Source: a candidate division WOR-3 bacterium (GTDB taxonomy: Bacteria; Hydrothermota; Hydrothermia; LBFQ01). From it: 10,188 nt of DNA. Made by a program: the position numbers and the translations under genes. This document shows, piece by piece, positions 1-10,188 of this stretch. Each line of letters begins with the position of its first letter. The first letter of the stretch is position 1. The DNA is taken from assembly GCA_039802605.1 (NCBI GenBank), contig JBDRWW010000020.1:1-10188 (forward strand). The letters are read 5' to 3'. Under the pieces are notes generated by a model, which saw nothing but the letters and a program-made list of their open reading frames with translations, searched no databases and was not told the origin of the DNA.

Positions 1-36
1 ACCCTTGGGTGCCACCCTGTAAGACTCGCCTATCAT
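1..36 (-). CDS. Possible 5' end of a gene running off the left edge (MIGESYRVAPKG...); product unknown
   Basis: ATG at 36-34 is open to the window edge (12 codons). It is preceded by purine-rich GGAAAGGGT and lies downstream of a near-consensus promoter at 54-81. Too short to identify, and could instead be a 5' UTR or ncRNA. Confidence 0.35.
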   Translation of the reverse strand, partial: MIGESYRVAPKG

Positions 37-53
37 TATTACCCTTTCCGGGT

Positions 54-81
54 ATTATAAGGGTGAAAAACTTGAAGTCAA
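54..81 (-). promoter_or_regulatory. Sigma70-type promoter firing leftwards
   Basis: Minus strand reads TTGACT (81-76), a 16-nt spacer, then TATAAT (59-54). The -35 is overlapped by the palindrome ACTTGA-AG-TCAAGT (70-83). Confidence 0.7.
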
Positions 82-83
82 GT

Positions 84-229
84 GTTCGGGAATCTCCAAT
101 AGTGTAAAAACCCCCGGGGGTTGCCGAACGGTTTTTGTGTGGCTTCATTATTAAGAAAACGCATTTATAACGCAAAAATAATGATTTAAATAAAACGAAA
201 CGGCCTTTTAAGAAGGGGGATTGCCGAAC
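84..229. repeat. Tripartite 14-bp motif: an inverted pair plus a direct copy, resembling a CRISPR leader
   Basis: GTTCGGGAATCTCC (84-97) is inverted relative to GGGGGTTGCCGAAC (116-129; 11/14 match), around the spacer AATAGTGTAAAAACCCCC. GGGGATTGCCGAAC (216-229) is a 13/14 direct copy of 116-129, exactly 100 bp downstream. Confidence 0.8.
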
Positions 230-264
230 ATCGTATAAAATCAATTTCAAAGCCATAAAAAGGG

Positions 265-303
265 TTTAAAACGCAAATAAAATTACACTTTTTAAAACGC
301 AAA
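265..303 (+). repeat. 13-bp direct repeat TTTAAAACGCAAA x2
   Basis: Exact copies at 265-277 and 291-303 (26-bp period); related AAACGCA/AACGCAAA words occur at about 156-177. Confidence 0.7.
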
Positions 304-365
304 CAACGGTATAATTGAAACAATACAAAACCGCTAATTAATCAACTTGCAAAAACAACGAATTT

Positions 366-401
366 TTCGCATTCTTTTGGGCTAAGAAGGAACACAGAAA
401 C
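366..401 (+). CRISPR. Possible solitary or degenerate CRISPR repeat after a leader-like region (no array)
   Basis: 36-nt TTCGCATTCTTTTGGGCTAAGAAGGAACACAGAAAC has an internal hairpin TTCTT(372-376)/AAGAA(384-388) and a 3' GAAAC end, and follows the AT-rich leader-like tract. There is only one copy and no cas gene in the window. Confidence 0.25.
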
Positions 402-1253
402 CTACGAAAAAACCCCCTCTACAAAAACCGAAACATCGCCAAGGGTTATAACCTTGGGCTTTATTTTTGGATAAACCAAAATAGCCCTATTAACACCCAA
501 AACCTTCGCATATGTAAAAGCCTGATAAACATCCAAGCGCTGAACCTTGGTTTTATATTTGGCATCCAAAGGCGTATTGTCTTCTAAGATATAATCGGGT
601 TTTATCAATTTATCGCCTTTGTACCTTTTTCCCCCATAAACCTCACCGACGAATTCCTCAAACAAAAGGGGTGTATTTATTAAAAATCCCGAATATCCAT
701 AACCAAAAACCCCGATGGAAATTAGATAAGCCAAAAGCCAGAGTTTTTTATTTTCGGAATCTTGCAAATACTTGACCTTGAAAAATTCGGGCTGAACTTT
801 CATATATTCATCAACCTCAAAGCCCAAAAGGTGGAGTATATAGTTTAGGTATAAAACATCCTCGGGCAAACCCAAACTGTGCTTTTTTGCCGGTATTTCA
901 AAAACCTTATAAACCTTATACCTTTCAAGCATTATCTTCCCCACACCCTTTTTATTTTCCGTAATCTTATAGCCCTTAACATTCCCCACAAATTCCCTAT
1001 AAAGCCTTAAAAACTCCCCCTTTATTTCTTCCTTAACGCCGTTAAAACCCCCAAAACCCTTTATGTTATACACCCTTTTAAGCATCTCGTATATCACCTC
1101 CCAACCCCACCTCGGCAAAACCTCGTAATCGAATATTTTACCCGCACCCCGTATTTGATAAACATTTTTACCGACCTTCCTAAAAGCCCATTTTAAATAT
1201 TTTGGAGGGTTTTCCGGAAGCTTTATATACGAAAACTCTTTAATCCTCTTCAC
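402..1253 (-). CDS. Compact McrC-family (McrBC restriction subunit-like) PD-(D/E)XK nuclease, 283 aa
   Basis: C-terminal McrC-type motifs LFEEFV, IKPDYIL, LDAKYK, DVYQAFTY and ILVYP; the N-terminal GKI..YEVLPR...YEML also fits McrC. The GTG start overlaps the upstream TGA (GTGA at 1253-1250). Confidence 0.8.
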   Translation of the reverse strand: MKRIKEFSYIKLPENPPKYLKWAFRKVGKNVYQIRGAGKIFDYEVLPRWGWEVIYEMLKRVYNIKGFGGFNGVKEEIKGEFLRLYREFVGNVKGYKITENKKGVGKIMLERYKVYKVFEIPAKKHSLGLPEDVLYLNYILHLLGFEVDEYMKVQPEFFKVKYLQDSENKKLWLLAYLISIGVFGYGYSGFLINTPLLFEEFVGEVYGGKRYKGDKLIKPDYILEDNTPLDAKYKTKVQRLDVYQAFTYAKVLGVNRAILVYPKIKPKVITLGDVSVFVEGVFS

Positions 1254-4200
1254 CTTTTTATAAACTTGAAAACCTTACCCCCAACCTTAACCATATACAC
1301 ACCCCTTGGCAAACTTAGGGGGATTTCCTTATCGCCATCAACATAAATGCTTAAAACCTTTCTACCACCTATGGAATAGACCGACAACCAAGCACCCTTT
1401 AATCCTATAACCCTTATACCGTCCTTTGTGAATACCACATCAAACCTATTAATCGTTTTATCCTCCTTAACCGATATTAAAACGGGTTCATCCGGAAGGG
1501 AATCTATTGGGGAATTGGTGGCCCACCTGTTATAAAAGGGCATACCCCATATAACCTTACCCCCGTATATCCTCCAAGAGTAGAGTTTATTCGCTTCCGT
1601 TGGGGCAAATATGTAAAGGTATCCGTTGTATGTGGTTGCACTTGGAGTTGAAAATACAACATTATTCCTAAAACGATTGTGGTCTGAAAGGTCTATGGGA
1701 AAACCGTAAAGGTCCCTCCTAATGTTTGAATAGGCGTGTAAATAACTCCTCGCATCGGATATTAAAACCTCTCCCTTTCCGTCCTCATCAATATCAACCG
1801 TTGTTGCCATCCTCCCCCTTAAAGAGGCATCCTCTGAAAATGTGTCTATCGCCACAAACTGCGTATCTATGTAATAAACATTTGTGTAAGGGGAAGTTTC
1901 GCCGTACATAGCTATATCGCTTTTACCATCGCCATCAAAATCAACGGGAATACAGATACCGTTGGGGTTATAAGCGTTTGAATCAACGGTTATTATTCCA
2001 CCGGAGAAGGATACAAGGGTATTCCTATGTCCGCATGTCAATATTTCCGGAACACTATCACCCACAAAATCCCAAACCACAAGCCACCTTGAAGTCCTAA
2101 CGCTCAACGGATAACCCGAAATATCGTTAAGGCTCTGGTCGAGTATGTGTAAGTAATTCCCCGCTTTAACCACTATCTCCCAATTCCCATCGTTATCAAA
2201 ATCATAAGTTGCGGGTGGGGATATTAAGAGCGGATCGCCCACGCTATCAAGTTTGTAATTCAAAAGTGTCCCAAATCCGTTATAAAGTAAGACGCTACCC
2301 CTTCTGGTTATCAAGACTATCCTTACATCCGTTCCGGCCTTTGTTAGCATTAAATACATGGGTCTTGGGGTTGAATCCGGTCTCCCGGGGAAATATGGGT
2401 AATCAACACTCCAAATGACATTTCCGTTTGAACCGTTTAAAGCGTACAGTTTAAATGTTGTGGCAACAACCACTTCAAGTTTCCCATCGTTGTTTATATC
2501 TCCTATAACTGGGAATGTTTCAACCCAACTACCCAAATAGTTCTGCCATATAGTTGAACCGTCCAACCTCAAAGCATAAATCTTATTAAAGGCCGAAGCG
2601 CTTACAAATTCCGGCTCAGCCGTATTGGTTAAAAGTTGCCCGAATATAGGCCCCGAAAGCTTGCTATACCTTGCAACGGATGAGAAGTATATGTATTCTA
2701 TATCTTTTACAAACCATAAGTTGGGGTTTGGCCTTTCCTCAACGGAAAACACCGTATCACCCTCTATACCATCCTGAACAACCGAAACAGAAAACCTCCT
2801 TTTAACGAAGTTGTTATTAACATACATAAAGTTTGAACCCGTCAATGTATCAAGGTTTGCAGGATAACCATCAACAAAAACCCTCCAAGAATACCTTTTC
2901 GTTGAATCGCCCGAATACTTCCACCTGAGTATAACGCCGTTATTGACCGGTTCGGAGGAAAAAGCGGAAATGCTAACCCTTGGGGTATCTATCCTTATCC
3001 TGTAATCCCCATAATATATAGAACCCGCATACAGTTTTAGCCTTATCCATTGGCCATAAGGGGATGTACCCCGCAAATAATAGTTTAAAGCATAGTTTGA
3101 GAATTCTCCGGGTGCTAGCCTTGGCAAGACATTGCCCCCCACGGGGATAAAAGAAGAACTATCAACCACAACCCTAACATTGAACGCCGTATCGCTTCCG
3201 GAGTTTGAGACCTCAAACATCAAGAGCAATGTATCCGAATAGTACCTCCATTTTGCCGAGTGGAATACTAACCTTGGTCCCCCAACCCATACAAAAGCGG
3301 AATCCACATACCCACCCATAAAAACCTTTATTTTTGAAAACCTATTCCCCGAGAAAAACGGAGACCTTACAACCGTCCAAGAAAAAGGTATTGAAGCCCC
3401 AGGTGTAATAATTGCTGGGGAAGGTATTGATATGGGCATTAAGTCCGATGATGTTAAAATTGGGGAAACCGTTGTTGCGGAGGAACCGAGGTTTTTTATC
3501 CAAACGGTTAGATTTGCCGTATCGTTGGGGGATGACAGATATACGGAGTCTATAACGAGATAATATCCGTTGTAGTTTGCGGAAACTTCTCCAAGATATA
3601 CCAAACTACCCGGGTGCCAAGCGCCCCAATTAAGTGTGTCCGTTCTCTTAACATTAAAGGAAACCATTCCGGAAAAGTCCGTAAATCCGTACATCACAAC
3701 CCCCCTTTTATCGGAAAGGGAAACCTTAACAAAGGGTTTGGGGGATAAACTTACCGAATCAACAACATTAAAAGTTATTATCGTATCGCTTATGGTATAA
3801 CTTATCCCGAGTTTTTGCCTTCTATCGTTGAAAACCCTAACAAACGGGTCCCCGATAATATTGTAAGCCATAAGTAAATACCTGAAAAGGGTGGAATATT
3901 GCGAAACATATGAATACGCGATTTTCCCGTAATTCACAACCAAACCTATATATGGAAAGCCCGCAAATGCGTTTATCGAGTCGTATATTACACCCCATAT
4001 GCTTGATACGGATAATCCAAAATCGGCCTTAGTTGCGCCTATGGAGGCCAACGCCTTACCCCTCTTAACCGCTTCCAATCCTATGGAGTTTGAAAAGGGG
4101 TCGTTTACAAAACACCCGACCCATCCCGCTATGAACTTAAAGCCCGACAGTTCGTTTATCCTCCTGTAATCAAAGGCATCATATGCGGAAGAGGAGTTTC

Positions 4201-5437
4201 TCGTCATTATAACCCTATGGTTTGAGTGTCCTATACCAAATAGCATTACGGGTTTAAAGTTGTTTAATGTATCCCTTACGGCCGCCGATGGACGCTCGCA
4301 AATAATCCTCTTTTGGGATGGATCTATCCTAGTTAATCTGTTTGCCAAATCCATTGCCAACAAACAACCGTCTGCGCTATCAGGATCTGCGGTATCTCCC
4401 CAAAGGTTTGAACCCATAAAGGCAAATTTCGGGACATCAAAGTTGTTATTCGTCTCGTATTCTATTAAGGAGTTTATGTAATTATCAACCCCCTCGGGAA
4501 GGTCAAAGGGCAACCTTCCAATTATTATATCCGGAAAGAGGTCCGCAAAAACATCCCCCTCATCGCCATCCCATTCGTCGTTGTTCAGGTTCCAATCGCC
4601 GTCCAATGCGGAATAATAATAATCCGTAAGTAAAAAGTTGCGAAAGGATTGTCCATAAGGGTCGCCAATGGTATCGTAGAATAAGGTTACATTTGTCCTT
4701 AAAGGGGGTATCCTTTGGGCGTCTGCCCCTATGAGTAGTGCGGAAAGTCCAAAGTTTTCATACATATACCTCAAAAAGTTTCTTATTCTTTCGGGTATTG
4801 AGTTTCCGGGGAAATGGGAAACCACCCACTCAACGGTGAAGACCTCGGTTTTTATACCCATTGAGTTGCGGAATTCCGCCAACCTAAGCCAATTGGGTTT
4901 CAAACCCTCTGTTGTAAGTATTACGAAATCCACCCTATCCTGAGGTATAAAGTTAAGGGTTGAATATTCGTTTATCCCCAAAACCTTAAATGTCCCCGCC
5001 CATATTTCTGGGTTTGAGTATTTCGGCTTTGAAAACCGCTTTGTATTTTCACCTTTTATAACCTCAAAGCTAACCTCTTCGTTTAGGAAAACCCTACCGT
5101 TTTTTATCTGAATTGCACTAACCACTATAAAGGCGATGTTGTGCCCCCTAAAAAACCCCTGATTTCCCACAAATACCACATCCTTAGGGTATATGTTGGG
5201 GATAAATGTTTTTATAGGTTTGGCGTTGGGGGTATCTATCGGAAGCGCAAAGGTAATTTTATGGTTTATAGGCCTTTGCTTTAAAGAAGTTATCCTTATA
5301 CCCTCAACCCTTTCGTCTGGGTTTAAATGGACGATTACAACCTTAAAGGGAATTTCCGGAAACCCCGCATAATTTGAAAATCTCGGCAAATTGCCAATGT
5401 CCTTAAACGAAACCGTAAAAGCGGTTAAGAACAACAT
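1250..5437 (-). CDS. C25-family (gingipain-like) cysteine peptidase with propeptide, Ig-like domains, FG-GAP/VCBS repeats and T9SS type-A C-terminal sorting domain, 1395 aa
   Basis: C25 motifs FVILT, IRNFLRYMY, LLIGAD, TDYYY, PDIIIGRLP and YNIIGDP; candidate catalytic His (IGHS) and Cys (GCFVN). Five DxxxDGxx(E/D)-like repeats (GDINNDGKLE, DFDNDGNWE, DFVGDSVPE, DFDGDGKSD, DIDEDGKGE). CTD signature VYSIGGRKV...LPRGVYMVKV...KFIKR. Confidence 0.9.
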   Translation of the reverse strand: MLFLTAFTVSFKDIGNLPRFSNYAGFPEIPFKVVIVHLNPDERVEGIRITSLKQRPINHKITFALPIDTPNAKPIKTFIPNIYPKDVVFVGNQGFFRGHNIAFIVVSAIQIKNGRVFLNEEVSFEVIKGENTKRFSKPKYSNPEIWAGTFKVLGINEYSTLNFIPQDRVDFVILTTEGLKPNWLRLAEFRNSMGIKTEVFTVEWVVSHFPGNSIPERIRNFLRYMYENFGLSALLIGADAQRIPPLRTNVTLFYDTIGDPYGQSFRNFLLTDYYYSALDGDWNLNNDEWDGDEGDVFADLFPDIIIGRLPFDLPEGVDNYINSLIEYETNNNFDVPKFAFMGSNLWGDTADPDSADGCLLAMDLANRLTRIDPSQKRIICERPSAAVRDTLNNFKPVMLFGIGHSNHRVIMTRNSSSAYDAFDYRRINELSGFKFIAGWVGCFVNDPFSNSIGLEAVKRGKALASIGATKADFGLSVSSIWGVIYDSINAFAGFPYIGLVVNYGKIAYSYVSQYSTLFRYLLMAYNIIGDPFVRVFNDRRQKLGISYTISDTIITFNVVDSVSLSPKPFVKVSLSDKRGVVMYGFTDFSGMVSFNVKRTDTLNWGAWHPGSLVYLGEVSANYNGYYLVIDSVYLSSPNDTANLTVWIKNLGSSATTVSPILTSSDLMPISIPSPAIITPGASIPFSWTVVRSPFFSGNRFSKIKVFMGGYVDSAFVWVGGPRLVFHSAKWRYYSDTLLLMFEVSNSGSDTAFNVRVVVDSSSFIPVGGNVLPRLAPGEFSNYALNYYLRGTSPYGQWIRLKLYAGSIYYGDYRIRIDTPRVSISAFSSEPVNNGVILRWKYSGDSTKRYSWRVFVDGYPANLDTLTGSNFMYVNNNFVKRRFSVSVVQDGIEGDTVFSVEERPNPNLWFVKDIEYIYFSSVARYSKLSGPIFGQLLTNTAEPEFVSASAFNKIYALRLDGSTIWQNYLGSWVETFPVIGDINNDGKLEVVVATTFKLYALNGSNGNVIWSVDYPYFPGRPDSTPRPMYLMLTKAGTDVRIVLITRRGSVLLYNGFGTLLNYKLDSVGDPLLISPPATYDFDNDGNWEIVVKAGNYLHILDQSLNDISGYPLSVRTSRWLVVWDFVGDSVPEILTCGHRNTLVSFSGGIITVDSNAYNPNGICIPVDFDGDGKSDIAMYGETSPYTNVYYIDTQFVAIDTFSEDASLRGRMATTVDIDEDGKGEVLISDARSYLHAYSNIRRDLYGFPIDLSDHNRFRNNVVFSTPSATTYNGYLYIFAPTEANKLYSWRIYGGKVIWGMPFYNRWATNSPIDSLPDEPVLISVKEDKTINRFDVVFTKDGIRVIGLKGAWLSVYSIGGRKVLSIYVDGDKEIPLSLPRGVYMVKVGGKVFKFIKR

Positions 5438-7698: not shown

Positions 7699-8886
7699 AT
7701 GAAAAAACATTTTTATGAAATCGTCCTGCCGGAGATAAGGGAGGTATTAAAGTGGATAATACCAAGGGGAAAGGGTGTTGATTTGGCGGTTTCGGGAAGG
7801 GGGAAGTTGTCGTTTTTGGTATTTCTCATACACAAAAGCGAAGGTTTTTACGATAACTTACGAAAACTCATACTTTACATATCCCAAAGGCCATCTTTGA
7901 GGGTTGAAGATGTTTATAAGGTCGTTAATGCTTATGAGGTTAAGTATGTTAGGCCATACGATTACGAAAAGTATCTTTTATCCCAAAGGAACATAGGGTA
8001 TAAGTTTTACAACTACAATACTAAGATAACTTTAAATACCCCAGAGAACAGGTTTTTGGCCTTTTTCGTTGATAGAATTATTTGGGATTTGGAGGATATA
8101 CTTTACAGGTTTGAAAGTAAAGTTTTTAAGAATGAATTAAACGAAGCCCGCAAAATTTTAAGGGATTTTAAGTTTTTAAGGGATTTCACATTTTTACAGA
8201 ATTTTGGACGATTTCCCGAATTTAACGTTTCTGAAAGGATAACCCACAACCCGATTTATGCAAAGGCTTTTAGAATGTTTTTAAACTACGGGGGTTTTAT
8301 TACAACGGAGAAAAATACCCAATCTTTGGATAAGGTTTTGGAGGATTGGAGGATATTTGAACTGTATGTGTTTTTCAGAATAAAGGGGATAATACAAGGC
8401 GTTTATGGATACCCCAACAAACCGCCGAAACTTCCGAGATTGGATAAGGAAATGCCTGCGGACGAGATCTTCAAAAATTGGACTTATGAATTTAACGGCC
8501 TAACCCTGCACTATCAGTTAGAAATTCCAAGGTATAAGCCTTATACAAGGCAAAAAGTTTTTTCTACAAGTTTATCTTTAAGGCCCGATGTGGTTATAGA
8601 AAAAGGGGACTGGCTTTACATTTTTGATGCTAAGCACAAAAACAGCCCCGAAGATAGCGATTACAGACAAATGCATACTTACAGGGACGCCATAAGGAAG
8701 AGGATAAGCGGAAAGCCCGAGAAAAGGGTAAGGTTTGCCATTATGATTGTTCAGAATAAGGACATTTTGGAGGAATTGAAGGGAGGGGATATATTAACCA
8801 AGTGGAGTTATATAAAGAATGCAAGGGTGGGATATATTACGCCTTCAAGGTTGAGGGGGGTGTTAAAAAGATTAAACATAGTTTAA
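7699..8886 (+). CDS. DUF2357 / PD-(D/E)XK (McrC-like, DUF524-type) nuclease, 395 aa
   Basis: NTPENRF motif, HNPIY, IFELYVFF, and nuclease core LRPDVVI...IFDAKHK...DYRQMHTYRDAI. The start is moved from GTG 7630 to ATG 7699 because of the strong SD and to avoid overlap with the thiolase gene. Confidence 0.85.
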   Translation: MKKHFYEIVLPEIREVLKWIIPRGKGVDLAVSGRGKLSFLVFLIHKSEGFYDNLRKLILYISQRPSLRVEDVYKVVNAYEVKYVRPYDYEKYLLSQRNIGYKFYNYNTKITLNTPENRFLAFFVDRIIWDLEDILYRFESKVFKNELNEARKILRDFKFLRDFTFLQNFGRFPEFNVSERITHNPIYAKAFRMFLNYGGFITTEKNTQSLDKVLEDWRIFELYVFFRIKGIIQGVYGYPNKPPKLPRLDKEMPADEIFKNWTYEFNGLTLHYQLEIPRYKPYTRQKVFSTSLSLRPDVVIEKGDWLYIFDAKHKNSPEDSDYRQMHTYRDAIRKRISGKPEKRVRFAIMIVQNKDILEELKGGDILTKWSYIKNARVGYITPSRLRGVLKRLNIV

Positions 8887-8909: not shown

Positions 8910-10188
8910 ATGGAAAACGGGAAAAGTTTGGAAAGGATAAAGGAATTTTTTAACAGAATGAACTATTTTTTGGATGAGGGAATTTTAAAGCGTTTTTACG
9001 CCGCAATAATGACAAAGCCGAGGTTTGTTATACTTTCCGGACCACCCGGAACGGGTAAAACTTCGTTTGCTTTGCTTTTTGCAAAGGCTTGGGAGATGGT
9101 TGGGTATGGGGGAGATGGTGAGGAAGGTAAAGGGGAAATAAGTAATGTGGTGGATATTAATGGGGAAAAATATGGGATATTTAGGTATTGGGTTTATATA
9201 TGTCCAAATGAAAAATGTGAAAATTTGCAGGCTATAAGGACAAATAATTATTTGGTGAGTTTTGAGGGAAGAGGCATAATTAGGTGTATTGATTTAAAAA
9301 CGGGAAAATCGTATTCAAGGGGTTTAAATTTTACCGACTTTGGCATTACTTTTGATAGCATTTCATATGTTGCTATAACTTATGACGAAAAGTATATTTT
9401 TATGGGGTTTAAAAAGTCAGATAGCGAATACATATCCTTTGTTTTTAAATTGGAAGATTTACAAGAGGTTGAAAAGTATGAAGATAAAGTAGATTCATAT
9501 TGGATTGGTATCTATCACATTTTTGGCCCTCAAACTTTTAGGTTAATAAAAGAATTGAAGGGTTTTAAAGGATATGAATGGATTTTGGATAGGTATTTGG
9601 TAGTTTGGGGTAATGTAATACGGGTTTATGATATGAAAAAGGGCGAAATAGTACGGGAATATGAAGCGAAGGACAGCTGGGTAAGTACTGAACTTTCACC
9701 AGATAACAGATATCTGGTTTTGAAATTCAAAGGAGAATTAAAGGTAATAGATTTGAAAAAAAGAAAGGAGATTTTTTTGGAAAGTAATGTTGAAAGATTT
9801 GAAATTTTGTATGACAAATACTTGGTTGTCTTAGCATCGGATTATGCTGTAATTTACGATTTGGAAAAAAACGAGGAAATTGGTACATTTAGGCGGGAGG
9901 GATGTTATAAAATAGAGAAAATTGAATTTCCGTTCTTTTATATTCACAATTATAAGGAGTGTGCGATTATTTACGATTTAAGAAAAAGGAAACCTTATTA
10001 TCTAAGCGGCGAAATAATTGATAAAGAGGGAAACATTATTGTTATAAAAGATGATAAGGGCAATTATTATTTGTTTGACCTTGAAACGGGAAACAATATT
10101 TCGGGTAATTTTGATAAGGCAAAACTAATAAATGATAAATACTTCTTAGCGAATCCCAAAGGTGGAAAATGCACATTATATTACATTG
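8910..10188 (+). CDS. McrB-like AAA+ NTPase N-terminal segment followed by beta-propeller-like repeats; partial, at least 426 aa, absent from the ORF track
   Basis: Manual translation from ATG 8910 is open to the window end: MENGKSLERIKEFFNRMNYFLDEGILKRFYAAIMTKPRFVILSGPPGTGKTSFALLFAKAW. Walker A is at aa 44-51 (9039-9062) in an McrB-type context. It is followed by repeats ending IDLKTGK, VYDMKKGE, VIDLKKRK, IYDLEKNE, IYDLRKRK and LFDLETGN. The gene lies directly downstream of the DUF2357 nuclease. Confidence 0.85.
   Translation, partial: MENGKSLERIKEFFNRMNYFLDEGILKRFYAAIMTKPRFVILSGPPGTGKTSFALLFAKAWEMVGYGGDGEEGKGEISNVVDINGEKYGIFRYWVYICPNEKCENLQAIRTNNYLVSFEGRGIIRCIDLKTGKSYSRGLNFTDFGITFDSISYVAITYDEKYIFMGFKKSDSEYISFVFKLEDLQEVEKYEDKVDSYWIGIYHIFGPQTFRLIKELKGFKGYEWILDRYLVVWGNVIRVYDMKKGEIVREYEAKDSWVSTELSPDNRYLVLKFKGELKVIDLKKRKEIFLESNVERFEILYDKYLVVLASDYAVIYDLEKNEEIGTFRREGCYKIEKIEFPFFYIHNYKECAIIYDLRKRKPYYLSGEIIDKEGNIIVIKDDKGNYYLFDLETGNNISGNFDKAKLINDKYFLANPKGGKCTLYYI

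Follow-up and report, generated by a model that had tools for sequence, protein, structure and literature searches.

McrBC is known from textbooks as a reader of modified DNA; within its family, the large NxD branch is without a characterised member. In the systems of Escherichia coli K-12 and Thermococcus gammatolerans (6HZ4, 6UT5), McrB assembles into a hexamer with McrC in the ring, hydrolysis is stimulated and DNA is cleaved (Niu et al. 2020, PMC7680126). An NxxD loop together with an N-linker confers GTP specificity, the role of the N-linker being taken from 10.64898/2026.08.31.748284. Bell et al. 2024 (PMC11090510; preprint PMC10542128) defined an NxD clade, in which NxD is usually followed by E or D, reported that McrB GTPase domains frequently hold insertions likely encoding specificity domains, and announced that the other NxD systems would be treated in a later paper. 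WD40 sensors occur in bacterial Apaf-1-like STANDs (PMC13581612), and the propellers of fungal HET-D/E carry hypervariable sites on their interaction surface (PMC12222747).

The locus described here pairs a McrB-like NTPase gene with a McrC-like gene (Table 1). It resembles McrBC (PMC7680126) in its AAA+ fold, its Walker motifs (A and B) and its adjacent DUF2357-PD-(D/E)xK nuclease, and departs from canonical McrBC in having NxD instead of NxxD, neither an N-terminal DNA reader nor an N-linker, a 700-aa propeller inside the AAA+ domain, a Ser instead of an aromatic residue right after the P-loop, and one Arg at the position of the canonical sensor II/arginine finger pair. With the NxD-clade McrB proteins, including the CoCoNuTs (PMC11090510) and PDC-M26A, it shares NxD followed by Glu and a DUF2357 partner, and inserts in the GTPase domain are described as frequent; unlike in CoCoNuTs, there is no coiled coil, HEPN or helicase, and the McrC nuclease motifs are intact, so that the nuclease is predicted to be active. 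As in STAND/NLR proteins with WD40 repeats (PMC13581612; HET-D/HET-E, PMC12222747), a P-loop NTPase, a (double) WD40 propeller and an effector are combined, and as in HET-D/HET-E the variable sites lie on one propeller face; in contrast to these proteins, the NTPase is McrB, the propeller lies inside the NTPase rather than C-terminal to it, and the effector is a separate McrC. The propeller-Mrr nuclease (Vassallo et al. 2022, PMC9519451), which acts in phage defence, likewise joins a propeller to a restriction-type nuclease function, but does so in a single protein without an NTPase. Finally, the non-canonical McrBC systems LlaI and BsuMI (10.64898/2026.08.31.748284) also have a motor without N-terminal reader, motors of this type taking several nucleotides; there, a separate R1 reader gene and methyltransferases accompany the motor and DNA sites are the targets, whereas here the repeat module is internal.

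Results

The McrB-like gene continues beyond the window

The window, that is, the whole stretch of 10,188 nucleotides that was analysed, is the entire contig C20 of a 1.65-Mb genome (G000, 90% complete), and the McrB-like frame runs off its 3' end. The rest of the gene product is supplied by P0208, a database protein of 1026 aa, whose residues 1-426 are identical to the window ORF and whose last 75 residues are identical to the 5'-open frame that begins contig C11 of the same genome; ~525 codons fall inside the assembly gap between C20 and C11. C11 also shows synteny with the end of the locus in genome G002 (84% over 328 nt). No overlap prolonging C20 was found among the G000 contigs; one contig from a sequencing run reaches 1154 bases beyond the window end. 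When a relative's C-terminal core was used as query, P0093 (1031 aa) was retrieved, which departs from the window ORF at 11 of the 426 residues. The P0093 cluster comprises 29 members, and the named ones among the 15 listed are 'candidate division WOR-3 bacterium'. The stretch is present in 20 of the 24 listed runs, from 11 studies and mostly labelled hot springs metagenome, and the one RNA run contains only a 0.05 share of its words.

An earlier note on this DNA, made from the window alone, had predicted that the AAA+ core would resume past position 10,188. Indeed, Walker B and NxD follow ~700 aa of WD40-like repeats. We reject a misassembly or fragment fusion, as the junction at 9090-9150, which the note had expected reads to span, is bridged by contigs in 4/4 runs examined, from four studies (X2 being possibly the source of the same DNA), and P0208 carries the whole protein.

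Table 1. Location of the gene pair, its parts and related proteins
Feature	Location	Strand	Basis or remark
N-terminal part of split McrB-like NTPase	8910..10187	+	ORF of 426 aa, 3' end open
C-terminal end of McrB-like gene	G000:C11:2-229		75-aa identity to P0208
AAA+ N-terminal stub (aa 1-65): pair of helices, first strand, Walker A, next helix	8910..9104	+	Model secondary structure
Walker A GPPGTGKT (aa 44-51)	9039..9062	+	
Gly/Glu-rich low-confidence linker into insert (aa 66-105)	9105..9224	+	pLDDT <50 for 66-106
First half of WD40-like insert (aa 106-426)	9225..10187	+	Structure model, strain variation
McrC-like partner, 395 aa, DUF2357 + PD-(D/E)xK nuclease	7699..8886	+	Pfam, aligned motifs
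McrC-like nuclease motifs	E in FELY 8356-8367; PD 8584-8589; DAK 8626-8634; Q 8668	+	
Propeller-insert proteins	P0001, 747 aa (G003); P0002, 783 aa (G010); P0090, 688 aa; P0222, 945 aa		

Two separated halves of a McrB domain

The motif positions read by the note from the letters are correct, both for Walker A with its K50 and for the Asp residues at aa 128, 241, 281, 317, 356 and 390, and a re-scan of the first 426 aa likewise yielded no hhhhDE and no McrB-type NxD. Walker A lies at aa 44-54 in all full-length forms with only AAA+ helices ahead of it, and ~6 residues precede the first helix of the NTPase in the model; the N-terminal reader domain is thus absent, as the note had stated. After the insert, P0093 carries the strand-2 motif RPEW at 808, Walker B at 852-856 and then GTINRDETT, and P0208 has the same Walker A, Walker B and loop motifs. 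The loop reads N-R-D-E, that is, NxD followed by Glu, which fits the NxD clade of McrB.

A structure model of P0093 was built from a 6-sequence alignment (pLDDT 64.9, pTM 0.36, which leaves the domain positions unsure). Among 48,161 chains its best match is E. coli McrB (6hz4_A; Z 17.7, rmsd 4.5, 252/290 aligned), and Thermococcus McrB reaches Z 14.6. In this alignment, residues 9-1007 of the model are paired with 168-457 of E. coli McrB; as this match spans both sides of the insert, stub and far core form one McrB domain in the model, and the two split halves are predicted to rebuild a single McrB AAA+ domain. The insert enters in the loop that leads from the helix following Walker A into the next strand. 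Moreover, a profile of uninterrupted sister cores matches E. coli McrB (E 4e-11), and the McrB-like core matches the PADLOC candidate PDC-M26A (E 2e-25). A STAND identity of the NTPase was not borne out, an nSTAND3 match being sub-threshold and covering Walker A only, with the repeats internal; the long helical region of CoCoNuTs is absent from the model, and CoCoNuT-type genes (tandem nucleases, HEPN or others) were not found beside the pair in the loci examined. We conclude that the gene pair belongs to the McrB/McrC family, NxD clade, and is neither a canonical Type IV McrBC nor a CoCoNuT nor a STAND. As almost no sequence precedes the first helix and there is no N-linker (cf. the LlaI preprint, 10.64898/2026.08.31.748284), the motor may lack GTP specificity and may use ATP as well as GTP.

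A WD40-like insert within the AAA+ domain

The note had described a single propeller of ~350 aa inside the AAA+ core. Its place inside the core stands, and its size has to be revised: the entire insert ends at ~aa 745 in P0093 and comprises ~700 aa, and the ~15 blades counted on the model make it likely that it forms two propellers. The repeats do model as a propeller, with residues 352-681 of P0093 aligning to 8-9-bladed propellers (Z up to 14.7), and the Foldseek list for the model is headed by tandem WD40 proteins. The first propeller is modelled less well (TM ~0.25, rmsd >20 Å), its blade number and closure being uncertain. A sequence search with P0093 against the PDB gave no significant match.

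Of six (D)(R/K)YL...DL repeats claimed, three carry the full pattern; none of 10,000 shuffles reaches three, a result that overstates the case because the pattern was written after the sequence had been seen. Pfam returned only sub-threshold WD40/propeller matches for the 426-aa ORF (best E 0.0014), and P0001, P0002 and P0090 exceed the Pfam WD40 cut-off. A single-sequence fold of the 426-aa piece (pLDDT 60.5) left the stub unfolded and gave propeller matches with poor TM. The insert as a whole is not basic, with 99 K+R vs 106 D+E; on the top face the count is 27 K+R vs 33 D+E, and aromatic residues are abundant on both propeller faces.

The McrC-like partner and its neighbours

The McrC-like gene is separated by 23 bases from the McrB-like ORF downstream on the same strand, and its database proteins are 395 aa long, which places the start at 7699. 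Pfam recognised DUF2357 over the cut-off (E 3.8e-6), and PDDEXK_7 scored 22.0 bits against a cut-off of 22.1. The nuclease E, PD, DAK and Q are invariant in 6/6 aligned partners, and the catalytic motifs are intact. The DUF2357/PD-(D/E)xK nuclease adjoins the insert-bearing McrB in 4/4 genomes, in agreement with the partnership that the note had proposed, lying upstream in G000 and G002 and downstream in G003 and G010.

Genes for a thiolase and for a small class I methyltransferase flank the window locus, with no defence island, which counts against a defence role. The latter gene (Methyltransf_11; G000:C11:226-873) overlaps the McrB gene end by 4 bases, as a class I methyltransferase gene also does in G002; we take it to be a bystander rather than a part of the system, because it is lacking at the G003 and G010 loci. 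In G003 the pair lies between a Csx3-AAA gene and, by eye, apparent restriction-modification remnants (L012:4694-5557 and 9299-10500). In G015 a propeller gene stands on its own next to the pair and resembled an unfused form; it was not counted as one, as the near-identical L038 pair has a different gene there. A promoter scan gave no excess over shuffles, and Rfam gave 0 matches. Among the run contigs, one from X9 has a stop in nuclease codon 92 as one of three adjacent changes (window 7970-7977), and one from X10 has an in-frame 27-base duplication in the insert (window 9489).

Further McrBC-like genes and other features of the genome

Window positions 1-370 hold an AT-rich sequence that is repeated at six contig ends (87-97% alike). 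Because its copies in C9, C15 and C18 directly follow CRISPR repeat arrays, it is most likely a CRISPR leader, C20 beginning at an unassembled array. Beside it, at 402-1253 (-), lies another McrC-like nuclease gene, a short one (sub-threshold PF10117 match, E 7e-4), with no McrB adjacent; elsewhere in the genome, L035:5020-6606 is a McrB-like gene with no McrC seen adjacent, and the two are possibly a separated pair. A canonical NxxD McrB at L034:5329-6633 (-) (G000:C2) has no N-terminal domain, carries an insert of ~130 aa in that same position behind a Walker A that reads GTSKT, and has a McrC ~4 kb away. A 1395-aa peptidase C25 protein (gingipain/PorU-like) is encoded at window 1250-5437 (-); it contains FG-GAP repeats and has a weak tail of the T9SS type. 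Similar tails end many G000 genes.

Distribution and the site of insertion

The core was matched in 15/272 genomes of the phylum, four with the propeller, ten without and one unscored. The search for homologues of the same split architecture, which the note had proposed, thus recovered it in 4/272 genomes, all of one family, where it occurs in 3/11 other genomes at differing chromosomal places. Full-length forms are P0093, P0208, P0213, P0220, P0222, P0001, P0002 and P0090, and four full-length alleles have open frames of 1026-1036 aa. G002 carries the same build across a scaffold gap, and in G025, G084 and G167 frameshifts or stops disrupt the relatives.

To place the insertion, Walker A-B distances were surveyed in the best 80 of 586 loci, the best 80 of 580 loci and, among proteins, the best 120 of 369, which gave 265 distinct cores with both motifs after 19 rows without Walker A had been dropped. 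The span is <100 aa in 238 cores, 100-130 aa in 8, 130-400 aa in 15 and >400 aa in 4, and all of these last four are WD40-like. The 15 other cores with spans of 130-400 aa indicate that the insertion site is not unique; by these sequence comparisons, the site after Walker A is an insertion point of a known kind, with the propeller as the rare part. Since such insertions are also described in PMC11090510, the novelty that the note had seen in an interrupted McrB GTPase was overstated. The insertions of Thermococcus McrB were set aside as examples of the same site because they apparently lie elsewhere in the domain. A word search of the PMC11090510 text and four supplementary files found neither 'propeller' nor 'WD40', a McrB-propeller build is not described in the available passages of PMC9519451, 10.64898/2026.10.19.760177 and PMC7159879, and a propeller insert in McrB was not found in the literature searched, which lacked most subscription papers and preprint supplements.

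A tree of the core halves joins the five propeller rows with weak support (81/41), inside a clade of 23 rows (96/96); given this weak monophyly, one and two insertion events are indistinguishable. N-terminal tandem repeats (z at least 10) are present in 6 of the 16 non-propeller rows examined in this clade and absent from 10, some of the rows being near-duplicates. NxD McrB proteins with N-terminal tandem helical/HEAT repeats are P0098, P0099, P0103, P0020, P0097, L014:3786-5951, L021:1486-2844 and L023:340-2304; these repeats have a period of 28-41 aa and high internal identity and stand in place of the small DNA reader. Two proteins outside the clade also carry HEAT repeats.

A whole-library search with the 426-aa fragment gave 87 matches, one a close relative and the others generic WD40 or Walker A. 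The search for longer fused forms gave one match among 777 candidates, an ordinary contiguous McrB. Plasmid records matched partly in 414 cases, with 0 covering 80%; viral contigs held five loci with the core, and viral loci are absent from the long-insert rows of the survey. The ESM Atlas gave no match at 0.9, which is uninformative on novelty.

The insert is the fast-changing part of the protein

P0002 and P0090 share 99% identity in the core vs 36% in the insert, and P0093 and P0092 share 85% vs 47%; the insert is the fast-changing part of the protein. Blades were recently duplicated in P0001, P0002 and P0090 (z 27-59). The P0093 repeats are without recent duplication and have lost their internal similarity (z 1.5).

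Eight longer alleles (of 15 listed and 29 in the cluster) were compared with P0093 as reference. Variable sites number 51/640 in the insert vs 2/280 in stub, linker and core, the lid excluded. Among strains, variation falls on the propeller face with the d-a and b-c loops; in terms of the top/bottom convention for WD40 blades, variable sites amount to 31/187 in top-face, 14/198 in mid-strand and 0/155 in bottom-face regions, with 13 variable-site clusters on the top, none on the bottom, and seven sites with three states. Strands a-d were labelled by hand on the model of pLDDT 64.9 and pTM 0.36, after the variants were known; the top/bottom contrast persists when raw strand limits are used and when two long loops are left out (21/144 vs 0/155). 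Between lineages, 0.29-0.45 of bottom-face sites diverge, so the bottom face is not frozen; the top face, at 0.62-0.70, is again the more divergent, which counts against a ligand-driven reading, the top-face loops of WD40 proteins being generally freer.

Relative to G002, the insert has a dN/dS of 0.52 (0.30-0.94, 120 codons), as compared with 0.16 in the nuclease, 0.22 in the stub and 0.25 in the lid. Being below 1, the insert value indicates that the insert is kept by selection, and relative to the nuclease it changes ~3x faster. Among the listed variant codons of the McrB-like ORF in run contigs, 12/12 are non-synonymous and all lie within the insert (nine further variant rows lie outside this list), compared with 1/17 in the thiolase and 4/7 in the nuclease; against a neutral expectation of 0.74-0.80 the 12/12 is only marginal (P 0.03-0.07). 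Positive selection on the insert is suggested. The AAA+ lid has 23/106 variable sites, apparently one exchanged block common to P0093, P0219 and the distant P0222. Here (P0093 aa 921-1031), two haplotypes occur among close alleles, one of them also in the 64% identical P0222, and this sharing points to recombination between lineages. A diversity-generating retroelement was looked for in G000 (90% complete) and neither an RVT_1 match nor a second copy of the insert DNA was found.

Discussion

We give about an even chance to the reading that the locus is a two-gene defence module of the McrBC family, NxD clade, with a WD40-like propeller within the AAA+ domain as its recognition module. That the propeller binds a phage protein and thereby switches on or places the nuclease, as suggested by analogy, we regard as evenly balanced between right and wrong. 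By the example of E. coli and Thermococcus McrBC, a McrB hexamer would bind one McrC, and McrC would stimulate hydrolysis and cut DNA. On the analogy of WD40 NLR sensors, the ligand of the variable propeller face would be a macromolecule of foreign origin, in the likeliest case a phage protein; ligand binding would license or place the motor-nuclease, and the latter would then cut phage DNA or kill the cell. The gene pair may thus work like an NLR-type receptor. The note had proposed that the propeller replaces the modified-DNA reader; a recognition role is supported indirectly, by the turnover of the insert and its one variable face. Two points from the literature count against our preferred reading: no NxD McrB has been characterised, according to Bell et al. 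2024 (PMC11090510), and the characterised McrB proteins described in 10.64898/2026.08.31.748284 bind DNA via a reader.

The ordinary logic of Type IV systems, in which the propeller would read modified, damaged or otherwise unusual DNA and restriction would proceed as in canonical McrBC, appears unlikely to us, and has several observations on its side. DDB2-type propellers bind DNA, both propeller faces are rich in aromatic residues, and other inserts occupy the same site in 15/265 cores. The propeller takes the place of readers that, in this family, are DNA binders (10.64898/2026.08.31.748284), Bell et al. take McrB inserts as likely specificity domains (PMC11090510), and the propeller-Mrr nuclease fusion is a validated defence protein, propellers being able to hold protein or DNA (PMC9519451). 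However, the insert is neutral to acidic, its top face included, the whole insert turns over on a 99% identical core, and strain changes and loop indels over ~15 blades would exceed the small set of base modifications. This same fast change suits an arms race against an inhibitor no less than one against a ligand, as would be expected if the propeller kept the motor-nuclease shut or watched a host complex and released it when a phage inhibitor or protease touched the propeller; a 700-aa module on each hexamer subunit could block access of DNA or McrC. Such a guard or decoy arrangement is nevertheless improbable in our estimate, as no host partner gene accompanies the pair at the loci examined and the single variable face fits direct binding.

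Least probable of all, we think, is that the insert is a passenger, relaxed or decaying, which drifts in a permissive loop where it is tolerated, or that the pair has no defence role. The rarity of the architecture (4/272 genomes), the broken relatives in G025, G084 and G167, the single nuclease stop at codon 92 in X9 and the lost internal similarity of the P0093 repeats would all suit it; against it stand the open frames of 1026-1036 aa in four full-length alleles, an insert dN/dS below 1 with invariant catalytic motifs, and a propeller face wholly free of variation among strains.

Beyond the preferred reading of this one pair as a protein-sensing module, we tentatively consider that this McrBC branch is a protein-pattern receptor, in which a McrB motor with exchangeable repeat sensors would recognise phage proteins and fire the McrC nuclease. 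It is possible, and no firmer than that proposal, that these sensors are WD40 propellers inside the AAA+ domain here and N-terminal tandem helical repeats in the sister proteins.

The architecture is rare, having been seen in a single family of uncultured bacteria. From the insert it can be read what size of module is tolerated by an AAA+ domain when placed between its Walker motifs A and B, and P0002 and P0090, a natural pair with 99% identity in the core and 36% in the insert, allow a direct test of specificity. If a diversifying WD40 propeller is the only recognition module, a restriction motor-nuclease would have been re-aimed at proteins, converging on the NLR design, and, if the receptor reading of the branch is true, NLR-like immunity would have been built independently on a restriction motor.
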